A DNA stretch of 64,000 nt. Source: an uncultured Candidatus Rokubacteria bacterium. GTDB lineage: Bacteria; Methylomirabilota; Methylomirabilia; Rokubacteriales; CSP1-6. This document shows positions 31,120 to 47,064 of the stretch, piece after piece. Each line of letters begins with the position of its first letter. The stretch's first letter is position 1. The translations under genes and the position numbers were made by a program. The notes beneath the pieces are model-generated. The model had not been told where the DNA came from, did no database searches, and saw only the letters and a list, made by a program, of their open reading frames with translations. The DNA lies in assembly GCA_963758635.1 (NCBI GenBank), contig CAVWWD010000003.1, forward strand, positions 896,001-960,000, in the 5' to 3' direction.

Positions 31120-32758
31120 GCCCCCGCGGCTCATCGCCGACGTCGCCCGCGACCTGGGCCTCGGCGAGGCCGAGTGGATGCCCTACGGCCGGTACAAGGC
31201 CAAGGTGCTGCTCGGCGCCCTCGAGGCCCGCCGCGCGCGCCCCGACGGCAAGCTCGTGCTCGTCTCCTCGATCACCCCGACGCCGGCGGGTGACGGCAAG
31301 ACGACGATGACGATCGGCCTCGGGCAGGCCCTCTGCAAGGCGGGGAAGCGGGCGGTGATCGCGCTGCGCGAGCCGTCGATCGGCCCGACCCTCGGCATGA
31401 AGGGCGGCGGCACGGGCGGCGGCCGCTCGCAGGTCGTGCCCATGGACGAGATCAACCTGCACTTCACCGGCGACTTCCACGCCATCACCTCCGCCAACAA
31501 CCTGCTCGCCGCCATGATCGACAATCACCTCCACCACGGCAACGCGCTCGGCATCGACCCGCGCCAGGTGTTCTGGAAGCGCGCGCTCGACGTGAACGAC
31601 CGCGCGCTCCGGAAGAACGTGCTCGGCCTCGGCGGCGCCATGGACGGCGTCCCGCGCGAGGGCGGCTTCCTCATCACCGCCGCCTCCGAGATCATGGCCG
31701 CGCTGTGCCTCGCCGAGAGCCTGGCCGACCTCCGGGCGCGGCTCGGGCGCATGGTGGTCGCGGTCACCCGCGAGGGGAAGCCCGTCGCCGCCGACGCCCT
31801 CGGCGTGACGGGGGCGATGACGGCGCTCCTGCGGGACGCCGTGCACCCGAACCTGGTGCAGACCATGGAGGGCACGCCCGCGCTCGTCCACGGCGGGCCG
31901 TTCGCCAACATCGCGCATGGGTGCAACTCGGTGGTGGCCACGCGGATGGCGCTCAAGCTCGGCGAGATCTGCCTGACCGAGGCGGGCTTCGCCACCGACC
32001 TCGGCGCCGAGAAGTTCTTCGACATCAAGTGCCGGTTCGCGGGCCTCTCCCCCGACGCCGCGATGATCGTGGCCACCGCGCGCGCCCTCAAGTACCACGG
32101 GGGCGTCGCGATCAAGGACCTCGGGCAGGAGGACGTGGAGGCGGTGCGCCGCGGCATCGACAACCTGGCCGCCCACGTCGAGTCGGTGCGGCAGTTCGGC
32201 GTGCCGGTGATCGTGGGCATGAACCGCTACCCCACCGACACCGCCAAGGAGTACGCGGTGGTGAGCGAGGCCTGCGCCCGGCTCGGGGTGCGCGTGGGAT
32301 TCGCGGACATCTTCGCGCGGGGCGGCGACGGGGGGCAGGAGCTCGCGCGCGAGGTCCTGGACCTGCTCGACCGCGAGCCGTCGGCCTACAAGCCGCTCTA
32401 CCCGCTGGACGCCTCGATCAAGACCAAGCTCTCGACCATCGCCACCCGGGTGTACGGCGCCGACGGCGTCTCCTACTCGGCGCGCGCCGAGCGCCAGATC
32501 GCCCAGGCGGAGGCGCTGGGCTACGGCGGCGTGCCCGTCTGCGTGGCCAAGACCCAGCGCTCGCTGAGCGACGACCCGTCGCGGCTGGGACGGCCGCGGG
32601 GGTTCACGGTCGCGGTCAACGAGGTCTACATCTCGGCGGGCGCCGGCTTCCTGGTGGCCCTCACCGGCGACATCACCACCATGCCCGGCCTGCCGCGCCG
32701 GCCGAACGCCGAGAACGTCGACGTCGCTCCCGACGGGGCCATCACTGGCCTTTTCTGA
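31085..32758 (+). CDS. fhs: Formate--tetrahydrofolate ligase
   Basis: TPTPAGDGKTT, INLHFTGDFHAI, HGGPFANIAHGCNS, TEAGF, TMPGLP. Confidence 0.97.
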   Translation: MATSTPTPATPEPPRLIADVARDLGLGEAEWMPYGRYKAKVLLGALEARRARPDGKLVLVSSITPTPAGDGKTTMTIGLGQALCKAGKRAVIALREPSIGPTLGMKGGGTGGGRSQVVPMDEINLHFTGDFHAITSANNLLAAMIDNHLHHGNALGIDPRQVFWKRALDVNDRALRKNVLGLGGAMDGVPREGGFLITAASEIMAALCLAESLADLRARLGRMVVAVTREGKPVAADALGVTGAMTALLRDAVHPNLVQTMEGTPALVHGGPFANIAHGCNSVVATRMALKLGEICLTEAGFATDLGAEKFFDIKCRFAGLSPDAAMIVATARALKYHGGVAIKDLGQEDVEAVRRGIDNLAAHVESVRQFGVPVIVGMNRYPTDTAKEYAVVSEACARLGVRVGFADIFARGGDGGQELAREVLDLLDREPSAYKPLYPLDASIKTKLSTIATRVYGADGVSYSARAERQIAQAEALGYGGVPVCVAKTQRSLSDDPSRLGRPRGFTVAVNEVYISAGAGFLVALTGDITTMPGLPRRPNAENVDVAPDGAITGLF

Positions 32759-32847
32759 TCGCTGCCGCCGGTGAGCGCGCTCCGGCGCGTGTTATACTTA
32801 CCGCCGCTCGCTGCTCCGCGCGAGCGTCGTCCCGTGCTTCCGCACTC

Positions 32848-33838
32848 ATGATCCACGTCGACCATCTGACGAAGCGCTACGGGCCGGTCACGGCCATCCG
32901 CGACGTCTCCTTCACGGTCGACGAGGGGAAGGTCGTCGGCTTCCTCGGCCCCAACGGGGCGGGCAAGTCGACGACGATGAAGATCCTCTCGTGCTTCATG
33001 CCGGCCTCGGGGGGCACCGCGACGGTGGCGGGCTTCGACGTCTTCCGCCAGTCGATGGAGGTGCGGCGCCGGATCGGGTACCTCCCGGAGAACGCCCCCC
33101 TCTACCTCGACCTCTCGGTGGCCGCGTACCTGGACTTCGTCGCCGAGATCAAGGGCGTGTCCCGTGGCGCGCGGAAGGCGCGGGTGGCCGAGGTGATGGA
33201 CCGGTGCTTCATCGCCGACATGAAGCACCGGACTGATCGGCAAGCTGTCGAAGGGCTACCGCCAGCGCGTGGGCCTCGCCCAGGCGCTCCTCGGCGATCC
33301 CAAGGTCCTGATCCTCGACGAGCCCACCATCGGGCTGGACCCGCGGCAGATCACCGACATCCGCGCGCTCATCAAGTCGCTGGCCGGGCAGCACACGGTG
33401 ATCCTGTCGACCCACATCCTCCCCGAGGTGCAGATGGTGTGCGACGGCATCGTGATCATCAACCGCGGCCGCATCGTGGCCCAGGGCACCCAGGCGCAGC
33501 TCGTCGAGCAGGTGTTCCCCACCGCGCGCGTGGAGCTGGCCGTGGGCGGACCCGCCGACGCCGTCGCCGCCGCGCTGCGCGCGGTGCCCGGCGTGCTCCG
33601 CGTGGCGCCCATCGAGCCCGTTGGCGCGCAGAACGGCGTGGTCGGCTTCGCCGTCGAGTCGCCCCGCGAGCACGACCTGCGCGAGGAGCTGGGCCGGCTC
33701 GTGCTCGCCCGCGGCTGGCGTCTCATCGAGCTGCACCAGGCCGGCCTCAGCCTGGAGGACGTGTTCATCCGCGTGGTCGCGGGCGAGGAGGCGGCGGAGA
33801 CGGCCACGATCGAGATGACCGCCGCCGAGGGCGCCTGA
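32848..33838 (+). CDS. ABC-2 type ATPase (GldA-like); frameshift near 33230
   Basis: GPNGAGKSTT; LSKGYRQRVG signature; LILDEPTIGLDP; STHIL. Confidence 0.9.
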
Positions 33839-38027: not shown

Positions 38028-38140
38028 CCGGCCGGGCGGGGCTCCCAACCGCCCCGGGGAACCGCGCGCGGCTCTCGGCGGTTAGCCATGCGTCCGTGGG
38101 CGGACGCGCATCTTCCTCAAACCAACGGAAGGAGATCGGC

Positions 38141-38701
38141 ATGACCAGGAGACGGCACCTCACGTGCGCCGTCCTGGCGGGCATGATCGGGATCCTGGCC
38201 CTGGCCGGCGTCGCGCACGCGCAGACGCTCGAGGTCGGCCAGAAGGCCCCCGATTTCACGCTCGCCGGGCCGGGCAACAAGCCCGTGAAGCTCTCGGAGC
38301 TGCTCGGGAAGGGCCCCGTCGTCGTCTACACGTTCATCCAGGCCTTCACCGCGACCTGAATCAAGGAGATCGGCGACTTCGAGGCGAACCTCGCCCAGTT
38401 CGAAGCCGCCAACGCCCAGGTCGTGGGTGTGAGCGCCGATCACGTTGCGACCCTCGATGCCTTCCGCAAGGCCAACCCGACCAAGCACCTGCTGCTCTCC
38501 GACTTCCGGCGCACCATGCTGCCGGCATGGGGCGCGCTGAACACCGACGAGAAGAGCCCGATCTTCCGCTACGCCAAGCGGACGTGGTTCATCCTCGACC
38601 GCGAGGGCACCGTCCGGTGGAAGAAGATCAACGACAACGCGCTGGACCTCCTCAAGGCCGACGAGGTGCTCAAGGCGCTCAAGGACTCGGGCGCGTCATG
38701 A
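38141..38701 (+). CDS. Exported peroxiredoxin (AhpC/TSA, AhpE/PrxQ-like) selenoprotein; UGA codon 73 at 38357-38359
   Basis: AAGGAG RBS; signal peptide AHA-Q; VGQKAPDFTL...AFTAT-TGA-IKE continues in frame to VVGVSAD, LLSDF, AKRTWFILDREG. The TGA sits at the peroxidatic Cys position. Confidence 0.88.
38375..38400 (+). promoter_or_regulatory. Candidate bacterial SECIS hairpin 1
   Basis: CGAGG-CGAA-CCTCG, loop 25 nt after the UGA, G at loop position 2; lower stem GACT/AGTT. Confidence 0.5.
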
Positions 38702-39225
38702 CACGGTCCGTCGCCGCCATGGCGCTGGCGCTCGTCGTGAGCGCCATGGCGGTGGCGTCCGCCGCCGCGCCCGCGTTCGAGCTCAACACGTACGCCCCGC
38801 GGAAGGCCGCGCCCGCGTTCTCCCTGCCCAACCTCGACGGGCGCGGGGTGTCCCTGGAGAGCCTCCGGGGAAAGGTCGTCCTCCTCTTCTTCTGGGCCAC
38901 CTGGTGACCGACCTGCCGGAAGGAGTTGCCTTCCGTCAATCGGCTGCACACGGAGTTGAAGGATCGGGGGCTCGAGGTCGTGCTGGTGACGTTCCGGGAG
39001 TCGCCCGAGGTCGTGGCGCGGGCGGTGCGCGAGCGCGGCTACGTCGCCCCCGTGCTGATCGACGCGAGCGGCGACGTCACGGGCAGGCTCTACGGTGTCT
39101 TCGGCCCCCCCACCGCGTACCTGATCGACCGTAAGGGACAGCTCGTCGCGCGGATCGTCGGCGAGCGCGACTGGTCGACCCCGGAGGCGCGGGCCACGCT
39201 CTCGCGCCTGCTCGAGGAAAGGTAA
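38698..39225 (+). CDS. Exported TlpA/ResA-like thiol-disulfide oxidoreductase selenoprotein (UxxC); UGA codon 70 at 38905-38907
   Basis: Signal peptide; APAFSLPNLDG...RGKVVLLFFWATW-TGA-PTCRKELP in frame to YGVFGPPTAYLIDRKG and GERDW. Confidence 0.9.
38908..38943 (+). promoter_or_regulatory. Candidate bacterial SECIS hairpin 2
   Basis: CGGAAGG-AGTTG-CCTTCCG perfect 7-bp stem, loop 16 nt after the UGA, G at loop position 2; CCGA/TCGG lower pairing. Confidence 0.65.
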
Positions 39226-39235
39226 ACTGACCGCC

Positions 39236-39919
39236 GTGACCGACACGCTCTACCTGAAGCAGATGGAGCTGGGCCCGATGCAGAACTTCGTCTACCTCAT
39301 CGGCGACCCGGAGACCCGCGACTGCGTGGCCGTCGACCCGGCGTGGGACATCGACGCCGTGCTCGACGAGGTCGCCGCCGACGGCATGCGCCTGACCGGC
39401 GTGCTCGTGACCCACACGCATCAGGATCACGTGGGCGGCCACCTCTTCGGTCACGACATCCCCGGCATCGCCGAGCTGATGCAGCGGAGCCCGGCGAAGG
39501 TCTACGTCCACAAGGCGGAGCGCGAGTTCCTCAAGGGCTACGGCGGGGACGTCGTCAAGGTGGACGGCGGCGACACGCTCTCCGTCGGCCGGATCCCCGT
39601 GACGTTCCTGCACACGCCCGGGCACACCCCGGGGTCGCAGTGCTTCCTGGTGGACGGCCGGCTCATTTCGGGCGACACGCTGTTCATCCGCTCGTGCGGC
39701 CGCACGGACCTGCCGGGCAGCGATCCGTCGGAGATGTACCGCTCGCTCACCCAGCGGCTCGGGGTGCTGCCGGACGACACCGTGGTCTTTCCCGGCCACA
39801 ACTACGGCGGCGCCGCGACGACCATCGGCGACGAGAAGCGCGAGAACCCGATGATGCGCTTTCCGTCGATGGGCGACTTCCTTCGCGTCATGGGCGGCGG
39901 GCGCATCGTCCGGCCGTAG
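39236..39919 (+). CDS. MBL-fold metallo-hydrolase (glyoxalase II-like)
   Basis: THTHQDHVGG, TPGHTPGS, SGDTLF, GRTDLPG, PGHNYG. Confidence 0.92.
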   Translation: MTDTLYLKQMELGPMQNFVYLIGDPETRDCVAVDPAWDIDAVLDEVAADGMRLTGVLVTHTHQDHVGGHLFGHDIPGIAELMQRSPAKVYVHKAEREFLKGYGGDVVKVDGGDTLSVGRIPVTFLHTPGHTPGSQCFLVDGRLISGDTLFIRSCGRTDLPGSDPSEMYRSLTQRLGVLPDDTVVFPGHNYGGAATTIGDEKRENPMMRFPSMGDFLRVMGGGRIVRP

Positions 39920-42701: not shown

Positions 42702-42845
42702 TCGCCCCGCCTCCTCACGACCCTGACGGGTTCGCCAGCTTTTCCTTCGGCCTGGATGTTCGCCGCCGATACGAGCAGTGCGGCCGGCGACGGCTGATTG
42801 GCGTCCCGGCGTCCTCATGACCCTGACGGGTTCGCCAGCTTTTCT
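42656..42845. repeat. About 95-nt diverged tandem duplication across a convergent gene junction
   Basis: CTGGATGTTCGCCGCCGATAC and GACCCTGACGGGTTCGCCAGCTTTTC each occur twice. Confidence 0.85.
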
Positions 42846-43676
42846 CTCGCCAGCGGCGCTTCCTGCGGACTGGGGGAAGTGCTCGATCAGGTATCGCAGC
42901 CGCGCCTCCGCGAGGCGCGGCTGCTTGAGCTCGATCAGAGCCAGGGCCTCCTTGTAGAGGGCCGTCGGCACCCGCTCACCTCTCGGATAGTTCACGACGA
43001 CACGCCGGAACTCCTGAACGGACTGCTCGAGGTGACGCGTCGCCTCGTCCCGGCGGCCAGCGTCGGAGCTGGCTCGCGCCATCCCGAAGTACGCCTCGCC
43101 CACCGAGTACTGGGCCTTGTCGGCGAGCGGGGAATCCGGGAACCTGCGCACGAACTCCCGGAAACCGGAGATGGCGAGCGGATAGTTGCCCTTGGTCAGG
43201 TCGAGCGACGCGGCCTGGAAGGCCTGCTCGGCGCTGGTTCCGTCCGCCGCCCCCCGCGGCGCGGCGGGGGCGATCGGGGGCGTGGGCGCCGTGGGCTGGC
43301 CGGCGGGCGCGCTTCCACGAGCGGCCACCTGACGGCTCAGCGCGTCCAGGCGCCCCGACACGTCCTCGAGCCGGGCCGACACCCGGCCGAGCTCGGCGGC
43401 GATGTTGTCGAGCCGGGTCGACAGCGCGTTGACCTGTCGCGCCGTCTCCGCCGACTCCGTCCGTGTGCGGCGATCGGTCTGGCCGACCGACGTCTCCGTC
43501 TCGGCCCGGCTCCGGTGCACCGCGAGCGTGAGGGCGTTCAGGTCCTTGCGGAGCTGGGCCACGTCCTGGGGCAGGCTCTCGTCGCCGGTGGCGCAGCCGC
43601 CGGCCATGGCCGCCGTCGCGAGGAGCCCGAAAACGACGAAGGGGAGCCCGAGGCTCCCCTTCGGGTGCTGCCGCAC
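42815..43676 (-). CDS. cpoB: Tol-Pal protein CpoB/YbgF; frameshift near 42865
   Basis: Lipobox-like AGGC, coiled coil, TPRs (F..FV.RFPDSPLADKAQY, VPTALYK); downstream of pal. Confidence 0.85.
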
Positions 43677-43690
43677 CGCGGGCGCTCGAC

Positions 43691-44288
43691 TTAGCGTGCC
43701 TTCACCAGGAAGTGGGCGTGCCGGTTGCGCTGCCAGCAACTCTCGCTCTTCTCGGTGCACACCGGGCGCTCCTCGCCGTAGGAGATGATCGTGATGCGAT
43801 TGGCCTGGACGCCCTGGGTCACCAGGTAGTTCATCGTCGCCTTCGCCCGGCGCTCGCCGAGCGCCAGGTTGTACTCGTTCGTGCCGCGCTCGTCACAGTG
43901 TCCCTCGATCAGGACCAGCATGGTGCCGTTCGACTTGAGCCAGCTCGAGTTGTCGTCGAGGATCTTCGCGTCGCTCGGACGGATGTCGTACTTATCGAAG
44001 TCGAAGTACACGTCCTTGAGCGCCGTGTTCTCCGCGAACTCGCTGGGCGCGGGCGGCGTCGCGGGCGCGGCGGTCGCCGGCGCGGGCGGCGGGGGCCGGC
44101 GCGGGGGCGGAGGCCGACGGCGTCGACGGTGAGGCGGCCGCAGGGGCGCTCGGGGCCATCGCGGCGGGGGCCGCGGGAGCCGGTGCGGATGCCGCCGTCG
44201 TGGCGGGCCGCTTCGGGCACCCCACCAGGAACAGCGCGGCGATGAGCAGGGGCATCACCAGGAGCGAGCTACCGCGTCCGTGCCGCAT
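43691..44288 (-). CDS. pal: Peptidoglycan-associated lipoprotein Pal; frameshift in the Pro/Ala linker near 44090
   Basis: Lipobox LVGC; VYFDFDKY, IEGHCDERGTNEYNLALGERRA, SYGEERP. Confidence 0.93.
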
Positions 44289-44396
44289 AGCCTCACATCC
44301 TCCTTGTGAACAACCGTTGGAGCCCGACCGGGCCATCGAAAGAGCGTCCCGCCGCGGGATCGCCGATGTCCTCGCTAACTTTTCGCCGAGAGTCTA

Positions 44397-45737: not shown

Positions 45738-46629
45738 CAGCCTCGCTCGGGTCGGAGCTCGAAACGGAACATCACGCGCAGCGATGCGCGGCTCCAGTCC
45801 TGGGGAAGGGGCGGGAATGGGCTGGCGTCGGCGATGGCCCGCAGCGCGGCCTGATCGTAGAACGTGTTGCCCGACGTCTTCTCGATCCTCGGCGGCCGGA
45901 TCGACCCGTCCCGCTGGATCTCGACCATGATGAACGGCTTCTGGGCCGGCGCCTGCGTCGGCCCCTGGCGCTGCCACTGGTCCTCGACCTTCTGGAGCAC
46001 CTGCCGCAGGTACCACGCGTACGGGAAGTCCGAGACGTCGAGGGCGAGGGTCCCCACGCCGGTCACCGACCCCGTGGCCAGGCCGGCGGGCGGAGGCGGG
46101 GCGGGCCGCGCCTCCACCGGATCGCCTGCGCGCGAGGCGGTGGGAGGCGGCGCGGGCCGTGGTTGCCGATCGGCGGGGCTGGACAGCGGCGGCGCCTCCT
46201 TGTCCCCGGGCCGGGGCAGGGCCACCGGCCGCGACGGCAGCTGCGGGAGCGCCGGCGGGCTGTTCGGAAGCTGGACCGGCTCGCGCGCCCGCGCCTCGCG
46301 GGGCGCCGGCTCGGGAAGCTTGACCTCCCGCGTGGGCGGCACGACGGTCGGACGAGTCGGCAGGGGCGGACGCGACTCGCCCCGGGGCGTGCCGACGGCG
46401 GCCACCGCGGGCACGAGGTTCACCACGTAGGTCTTCGAGGTCTCCCAGCCGCTCCACACCACCAGCGCGGCGAGGCCGCCGAGCAGCGACGACGTGGCCG
46501 ATGGCCGAGATGGTCAGCGCGGCCACGGGCACGCGGGGGCGCGTGAGGGCGAGGCTCGGGCGCCGGGGCGACCACGAGAGGGAGCCCGCGCGCGGGCGCG
46601 GGATAGCTCTCCGCGCCGAGGGCGCTCAG
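45737..46629 (-). CDS. TolA/TonB-family energy transducer; N-terminus frameshifted, start approximate
   Basis: TM with S...H (SAIGHV), Pro-rich linker, C-terminal IQRDG..SGN..YDQAALRAI..ASPFPPLP. Confidence 0.78.
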
Positions 46630-47064
46630 CGTTCCCTCGTGGGCTCGGTGACCATGCCGAGCTTTTCCACGCCGGCCCTGCGGATCCGGTCCATGGTCTC
46701 GACCACGAACCCGTACTGGAGCGCCTGGTCGGCCTTCAAGTAGAGCGTCTTGTCGGTCCGGTCCTTCATGGTCTCGCGCAGCCGCCCGTCGAGCCCCGAC
46801 ATGGGCACCGGCTTGTCGTTCAGGAAGACGGTCTGGTCCTTCGTCAGGGTCAGCACCAGGCGCTCCTCGGTGGCGGTGGGGCGGCCGGTGCTCTTGCGGC
46901 AGGTTCACGTCGATCCCGCGATGCATCAGGGGCGCGGTCAGCATGAAGATCAGGAGGAGGACGAGGATCACGTCCACCAGCGGGATGATGTTGATCTCCG
47001 AGAGCGTGGGTCCGATCCGGTACGCCCCGCCGCTTCCCTCCGACGACTCGAGCCTAAACGCCAT
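46626..47064 (-). CDS. tolR: TolR/ExbD protein; frameshift near 46895
   Basis: EINIIPLVDVILVLLLIFM.TAP; YLKADQALQYG.V. Confidence 0.88.

Follow-up and report, generated by a model that had tools for sequence, protein, structure and literature searches.

Two overlapping genes in the window, which is the whole 64,000-nucleotide stretch of DNA analysed here from an uncultured Candidatus Rokubacteria bacterium, are proposed to form a two-gene selenocysteine (Sec) unit in which an exported, Sec-only protein of peroxiredoxin (Prx) fold is recharged by an exported UxxC TlpA-like reductase, a reading to which we give a probability of about 60%. Decoding of both in-frame UGA codons as Sec is itself very likely, since the conserved catalytic TGA codons, natural Cys forms, the Sec machinery of the genome and the SECIS element of gene 2 all point to it. 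The product of gene 1 (38141..38701, forward strand) has 186 aa, a BCP/PrxQ-like peroxiredoxin fold and one Sec predicted at U73; that of gene 2 (38698..39225, forward strand) has 175 aa, a thioredoxin fold of the TlpA/ResA-like type and, as its predicted motif, U70-x-x-C73. As the initial annotation had described, the two genes are adjacent and overlap by ATGA (38698..38701, forward strand), the stop codon of gene 1 and the start codon of gene 2, and each holds one in-frame TGA. ATGA or GTGA is found at the gene-1 stop in 63/71 pairs, an arrangement which would be consistent with translational coupling. A Shine-Dalgarno-like AAGGAG (38129..38134, forward strand) lies 6 bases upstream of the gene-1 ATG, where it may serve as ribosome-binding site; a promoter scan gave no promoter-like site, and the two terminator-like sites (0.8 expected) both lie within coding sequence and are uninformative. 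Translated with TGA as U, each gene has a single internal TGA, and after read-through both yield full-length Pfam AhpC-TSA and Redoxin matches (E 4e-26 and 1e-26).

Open reading frame calling stops at the TGAs, and the fragmented public gene calls that had been anticipated are indeed found as 72-aa and 69-aa N-terminal fragments in public collections, where the cluster members are named 'hypothetical protein' or Sco-type factor. Among the best 120 database matches for gene 1, 106 fall below 140 aa, and Cys occurs in just one of these 106. None of the 14 long matches among these 120 contains U; as records with U may be missing from the collection, the earlier expectation that the pair is probably unannotated stands for its mostly fragmentary public form and does not extend to absence everywhere.

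The TGA codons are strongly conserved. In a survey of 151 genomes of the class, with cut-offs of E<1e-50 for gene 1 and E<1e-49 for gene 2 and weaker matches left out, exactly one TGA was found in 83/84 strong gene-1 matches and in 80/80 strong gene-2 matches, and the TGA is the catalytic codon in 51/52 distinct gene-1 copies (the exception being TGT) and in 46/46 gene-2 copies. A second, partly overlapping set consisting of the best 80 of 139 confirmed loci has the catalytic TGA of gene 1 in 80/80 and that of the adjacent gene 2 in 70/70 scored. The relatives are mostly Methylomirabilota (Rokubacteria), with record titles that mostly read Rokubacteria, Methylomirabilota or NC10. The halves downstream of the TGA, described earlier as intact, are of near-constant length (111-115 codons in gene 1 and 104-117 in gene 2) with about 67% identity among relatives. 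Conservation at the catalytic codon rules out chance or sequencing error as the source of the TGAs. The idea that the TGAs arose by faulty sequencing or by nonsense mutation of genes under decay could draw on the frameshifts in several housekeeping genes of the assembly, and its probability is nonetheless negligible, refuted as it is by the recurrence of the same TGA codon across dozens of genera with conserved downstream halves. In four public runs, each from a different study, contigs span both codons, and as far as differences are listed none falls there. A rhizosphere RNA run has contigs across these two positions as well, but as contigs they carry no weight for transcription. Several records titled as other taxa (L112, L113, L137, L143, L156, L159, L176, L179 and others) carry the gene at 62-77% identity and may be mislabelled bins or transfers.

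TGA and Cys interchange at both codons, as natural Cys forms exist for both genes: Cys occupies the same column in 6/14 long gene-1 matches and, as a natural CxxC, in 17/21 gene-2 matches, and further natural Cys forms are P0003 and L084. In a gene-1 tree obtained by a quick search of 124 rows, to which the 52-sequence alignment contributed every fourth of its rows, the Cys forms are interspersed with Sec forms (clade support 89% SH-aLRT, rooted at the midpoint), which suggests Sec-to-Cys reversion in the gene-1 family. At L084 (G013:C79) the pair is present a second time, its gene 1 having TGT (Cys) together with Asn for Thr and its gene 2 keeping the TGA; this natural mixed Cys/Sec pair would be a useful experimental control.

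Gene 2 carries a canonical bacterial SECIS (bSECIS) hairpin (38917..38935, forward strand) with a 7-bp stem, the loop AGUUG, a UGA-to-loop spacing of 16 nt and a folding energy of -10.0 kcal/mol, in agreement with the consensus. The hairpin is paired in 97.8% of cells and fits the consensus in 67/71 relatives, and it is accompanied by a marked codon bias: its Leu codon is TTG or TTA in 45/45 copies against 27/826 for the remaining Leu codons of these genes, and its Pro codon is CCT in 45/46 against 32/595 at other Pro codons. A consensus bSECIS in gene 1 is not found above background (14/77 relatives pass, against 117/600 background sites), and the hairpin at the consensus position in this sequence has only -5.7 kcal/mol. 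Gene 1 instead has a longer stem 3' of the UGA (38375..38407, forward strand; arms 38375-38382 and 38400-38407) of 8 bp, spanning +16 to +48, which is paired in 94.8% of cells with compensatory changes on both sides. It has 7.2 Watson-Crick pairs against a mean of 6.0 (maximum 6.3) in 300 synonymous resamplings, kinship being known to inflate such counts, and its register is kept with swapped pairs in six paralogs of about 40% protein identity; RNAalifold recovered only 5 pairs of the stem. We infer that this stem may recruit SelB as a candidate atypical SECIS. According to a 2026 review some selenoprotein genes misfit the bSECIS model and non-consensus classes must exist (PMC13188914), and the gene-1 stem offers a concrete candidate for them. 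Another Sec-Prx candidate of the genome (L197, G000 C5:337973, reverse strand), apparently cytoplasmic and with its Pro kept, is likewise without consensus SECIS and has a long hairpin similar to that of gene 1, and the two hairpins could possibly represent a Prx-type SECIS class.

The search of the genome for selA, selB, selC and selD found all four, two of them (selA and selD) with frameshifts in the assembly. The tRNA-Sec gene (TCA anticodon, 67.7 bits, one copy), a single intact selB and selA lie together in a cluster on contig C10, and SelD is encoded on C3 as an Ndh-SelD fusion; selA and selD are each split into two frames (G000 C10:236178-237271 and C3:51092-52010). These breaks are probably assembly errors, because the genes for Pal, ExbD/TolR and an ABC ATPase break alike and because selA, present in 131/151 class genomes, is whole in nearly all of them; 10/76 genomes with both genes of the pair, which are incomplete bins, gave no selA match. 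In the window, single frameshifts split the ABC ATPase gene, a presumably CpoB-like gene and the Pal and ExbD/TolR genes (32758-33838, 42798-43760, 43691-44336 and 46420-47064). A TlpA gene elsewhere is frameshifted too (L104:2160-2732). The assembly is apparently rich in indel errors, and its apparent pseudogenes should therefore be distrusted.

It is very improbable that UGA is read here as Cys or Trp, or that gene 1 is rarely read through, so that the products would not be selenoproteins. The missing consensus SECIS of gene 1, the broken selA and selD and four database entries with Trp at this codon could be taken in favour of such a reading, but TGA is the main stop codon of the genome (1269/1723 long ORFs), one tRNA-Sec and one selB are present, and a wrong code is evident in the Trp entries, where the terminal stop too is given as Trp. 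A codon-model scan of the genome moreover returned 225 TGA sites, and a consensus SECIS is found in 24/29 other Sec candidates picked from them by hand on amino-acid motif, against 29/194 of the remaining sites. NCBIfam matches exist for 26/29 of the picked sites, many of them to known selenoprotein families (FdhA, GrdA, GrdB and UGSC), and these approximately 29 further candidates are a lower bound. They (L186-L214, G000) comprise FdhA, GrdA, three GrdB/PrdB-like, six UGSC-family and three YciW/AhpD-like proteins, and also DsbA-like, PDO, rhodanese, OsmC, MoeB and MerB-like proteins, two Sec-Prx and three TlpA-like proteins. A Methylomirabilota bin with 63 predicted selenoproteins is reported in the 2026 review (PMC13188914). 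Among individual sites, L186 (C3:880064, forward strand) has an exported-type N-terminus, a UGC motif and a strong hairpin (-12.3), with no NCBIfam match at 1e-6. L212 (C8:410450, reverse strand) is an in-frame TGA in a class III aminotransferase, beside a Cys in a Cys-rich loop (weak hairpin, -7.4), and L209 (C8:966154, reverse strand) precedes a small CxxC...CxxC protein (weak hairpin, -4.2); each of the last two could be a new Sec site, an error or a genuine stop.

Both proteins are predicted to be exported to the envelope. Gene 1 starts with a predicted cleavable signal peptide (38141..38221, forward strand) that has a basic start, a hydrophobic core and an AHA site, and by the same hydrophobicity and AxA heuristic 69/72 relatives have a hydrophobic 11-mer of at least 2.0 and 70/72 an Ala at -1, without a lipobox. 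For gene 2 a hydrophobicity heuristic predicts a signal peptide ending at approximately 38769 (38698..38769, forward strand), and a hydrophobic 11-mer of at least 2.0, again without lipobox, is present in 68/71 relatives. The host can be taken to have a periplasm because Tol-Pal genes are encoded in the window. The sole Cys of gene 1, Cys9, lies inside its predicted signal peptide, and the earlier observation that the mature product is free of Cys extends to the relatives (0 Cys in 51/51 Sec forms).

Gene 1 consists of a peroxiredoxin-like fold with an altered active site. Its motif I-x-x-x-T-x-x-U (38336..38359, forward strand; TGA at 38357-38359), as aligned to PDB 2cx3, agrees in part with the initial annotation, which had compared it to PxxxTxxC: the TGA is at the peroxidatic position and Thr70 is present, but the Pro is replaced by Ile66. 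The conserved Arg noted earlier is Arg147 (38579..38581, forward strand), which aligns with the catalytic Arg of 2cx3 and is invariant in 52/52 sequences; Glu76 of helix 2 is invariant too. The AlphaFold model (pLDDT 94.8) has a thioredoxin-derived Prx fold and places the catalytic residue where helix 2 starts (mature residue 44, in helix 42-53), and all Foldseek matches listed are peroxiredoxins, the best being Sulfolobus Bcp4 (TM 0.89). BCP/PrxQ is the nearest subfamily by both sequence and fold, yet the curated NCBIfam cut-offs are missed (NF006960, 51.7 against 140 bits; NF053650, 43.1 against 260). In the best 80 of 139 loci the Pro position holds Ile in 77, Val in 3 and Pro in none, and the Thr position holds Thr in 65, Ser in 2 and Asn, Ala or Gly in the other 13. 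Two other Sec-Prx candidates of the genome keep the Pro, hence its loss is specific to the gene-1 clade. Pxxx(T/S)xxC is described as an essential Prx feature with an absolutely conserved Pro, and about one third of PrxQ members as being without a resolving Cys (PMC4749874); by that account the lack of a resolving Cys is nothing unusual, unlike that of the Pro. Gene 1 is thus peroxiredoxin-like, strict membership of the Prx family failing on the Pro by sequence, and its peroxidase activity is not assured because the Pro is absent in 80/80 and the Thr replaced in 13/80 of these best loci.

Such departures give weight to the alternative that both products are selenoproteins and partners but that gene 1 is not a peroxidase and acts on another oxidised substrate of the envelope, for example oxidised thiols of proteins, sulfane sulfur or an oxo species of selenium or a metal. 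The Cys forms of the clade are also without Pro, no NCBIfam peroxiredoxin cut-off is reached, and the Caulobacter PrxL protein is described as having neither the conserved Prx residues nor peroxidase activity (PMC3322552). The alternative is nevertheless unlikely, given that the Arg and the helix-2 Glu are invariant, that Thr or Ser is kept in 67/80 of the best 80 of 139 loci and that the fold is close to BCP/PrxQ; a residue other than Pro also occurs in 13/87 database homologues scored, some of which are Cys forms of the same clade. The relay proposed here is preferred, and the family would provide natural tests of whether Sec relaxes the need for the Pro/Thr activation motif of Prx, with the Cys forms for comparison, and of how a Cys-free peroxiredoxin gets recycled.

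The gene-2 product has its UxxC motif at 38905..38916 (forward strand; TGA at 38905-38907, resolving Cys codon at 38914-38916). The TGA had been assigned to the first position of the thioredoxin motif, and W-U-x-x-C is invariant in 46/46 copies, all of which have exactly one Cys, that of the motif. Matches in the PDB are ResA, TlpA and DsbE, the Pfam Redoxin and AhpC-TSA models score above cut-off, and the NCBIfam cut-offs are all missed (ResA, 101 against 170 bits; TlpA, 71.7 against 230). A G-P-P-T loop is nearly invariant in the gene-2 clade.

The conservation of the pair, which the initial annotation had left to be checked, is high: 76/79 genomes with either gene have both. Across the 151 genomes, with four contig-end fragments scored as present, both genes occur in 76, gene 1 only in 2, gene 2 only in 1 and neither in 72. 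The pair does not simply follow the Sec trait, because 62/72 genomes with neither gene still have selA; the co-occurrence does overstate the link between the genes, related genomes not being independent. Gene 2 lies directly downstream in 71/80 of the best 80 of 139 loci (L166 is the 71st, beyond the 70 scored above), gene 1 is alone in 8 and one is cut by a contig end. A third conserved neighbour was not found in these 80 loci, where the best cluster reaches 17/80, and a Prx-TlpA fusion was not recognised in 24, mostly long, of 150 profile matches. A gene for a metallo-beta-lactamase-fold hydrolase (39236-39919), whose closest models are those of glyoxalase II, with scores under the cut-off, begins 10 bases downstream of gene 2; it was considered as a third part of the unit and rejected, as it is not a conserved neighbour. 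In a paralogous clade a CxxC TlpA gene precedes a Sec-Prx gene in six loci and the order is reversed in one. The paralogs L085-L090, of about 40% identity, have the CxxC TlpA gene followed by an exported-type Sec-Prx also without Pro, and in L086 a further Sec-Prx-like gene comes directly after the Sec-Prx.

Whether the two selenoproteins work separately has to be weighed against this, with the Prx being recharged by a diselenide homodimer, a small thiol or another redoxin, and the TlpA-like protein serving the assembly of cytochrome c or copper centres, or reduction in the envelope generally. Stand-alone gene-1 copies exist, the two genes are on different contigs in some genomes, gene 2 is closest to ResA/TlpA/DsbE models, and Sec-MsrA is described as dimerising via its catalytic residue (PMC4479559). 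Several further TlpA-like genes are present in the genome, and other predicted exported TlpA-like proteins (L104, L187 and L207) could serve instead of gene 2. Separate functions are nonetheless rather improbable in view of the tight co-occurrence independent of the Sec trait, the start-stop overlap and the repetition of the Prx-TlpA pairing in the paralogs; the genome moreover has a separate CcdA-TlpA locus, and no cytochrome-assembly gene is found among the 22 commonest neighbour clusters listed.

The relay is preferred on the basis of the gene overlap, the co-occurrence and the precedent of the ScsB-TlpA-PprX pathway of Caulobacter. It is proposed that periplasmic peroxide would be reduced by the Sec73 selenolate of gene 1, which would become a selenenic acid. 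As there is no resolving Cys, this selenenic acid would be attacked by Sec70 of the TlpA-like protein to give a mixed Se-Se intermediate, from which Cys73 of the TlpA-like protein would free the peroxiredoxin and leave an Se-S bond in the TlpA-like protein. That bond would in turn be reduced by a membrane transporter, of DsbD/ScsB type or a CcdA, whose gene lies elsewhere in the genome. Candidates are a CcdA and a 694-aa protein with DsbD_N, DsbD_TM and Thioredoxin_7 domains encoded beside a redoxin gene, which by its domains is a DsbD-family transporter of either the ScsB or the DsbD class. At L105:200-3018 a DsbD/ScsB-type gene directly precedes a gene for a redoxin whose N-terminus is twin-arginine-like, an order that resembles the scsB-prxL arrangement described in PMC3322552. 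The catalytic steps are those of general Prx and thioredoxin chemistry (PMC4749874, PMC3322552), of which the use of selenium would be an extension. A wider version, in which a lineage-wide Se-to-Se relay combines a Cys-free peroxidase whose Pro is made dispensable by Se, a dedicated UxxC TlpA and a long-stem SECIS class shared with other Sec-Prx, is possible but doubtful.

The individual parts of the proposed relay have counterparts in known systems. Sec-Prx proteins (PF00578, TxxU; PrxU of Eubacterium acidaminophilum) are catalogued in Table 1 of PMC13188914 and Table 2 of PMC2398784. Gene 1 shares TxxU at the peroxidatic position and the AhpC-TSA fold with this family, but the family motif is given as a highly conserved PxxxTxxU (PMC13188914) whereas gene 1 is without the Pro, scores 28.5 bits against a cut-off of 270 with the PrxU model and has a predicted signal peptide. 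Archaeal BCP/PrxQ proteins provide the best sequence match (Aeropyrum pernix 2cx3, E 2e-24) and the best fold match (Sulfolobus Bcp4, 3hjp); unlike gene 1, both chains keep the Pro and their entries have no signal peptide, and in 2cx3 the catalytic Cys is followed, five residues on, by another. UxxC Prx-like/thiol-disulfide-isomerase-like selenoproteins (cd02966, TlpA-like) are also catalogued (PMC13188914, Table 1), and gene 2 resembles them in its WUxxC motif, TlpA/ResA fold and canonical bSECIS, but differs in being tied genetically to a Sec-Prx and in its near-invariant G-P-P-T loop. A paper on this exported Sec-Prx/TlpA pair was not found in the literature searched, where supplements and bin-wide predictions may include the genes, and neither peroxiredoxin nor Methylomirabilota gave a match in the main texts on deep-Sep and BSepDB, whose supplements or databases may list these sequences.

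For recycling, the closest comparison is the Cys-free Sec-MsrA of Clostridium oremlandii, which is described as being recharged by glutaredoxin (PMC4479559). Both are selenoenzymes without a resolving Cys, and a thioredoxin-fold partner recycles MsrA as is proposed here for gene 1; Sec-MsrA is, in contrast, another enzyme with another substrate, from a Gram-positive anaerobe, and not an envelope Prx (PMC4479559). The pathway as a whole is most similar to the Cys-based envelope peroxide reduction of Caulobacter crescentus, in which electrons pass from ScsB to TlpA to PprX (Cho et al. 2012, PMC3322552). The two share a BCP/PrxQ-like Prx paired with a TlpA, both exported in Caulobacter and predicted to be so here, and a DsbD-family transporter beside a PrxL-like gene, but PprX has Cys, PxxxTxxC and a resolving Cys, whereas the present pair has predicted Sec in both proteins, a Prx without Cys or Pro and overlapping genes; electron flow was demonstrated in Caulobacter and is here suggested by linkage and precedent. 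If the relay is true, an abundant uncultured soil lineage protects its envelope by a selenium version of the TlpA-PprX pathway, one that is hidden publicly with its genes held mostly as fragments without the catalytic residue. Both selenoprotein families and the Cys-based relay are known, and the pair is therefore not a new kind of system; what goes beyond a routine annotation fix is an active site with neither Pro nor Cys, the atypical stem of gene 1 and the passing of electrons from Se to Se that likely takes place in the envelope.
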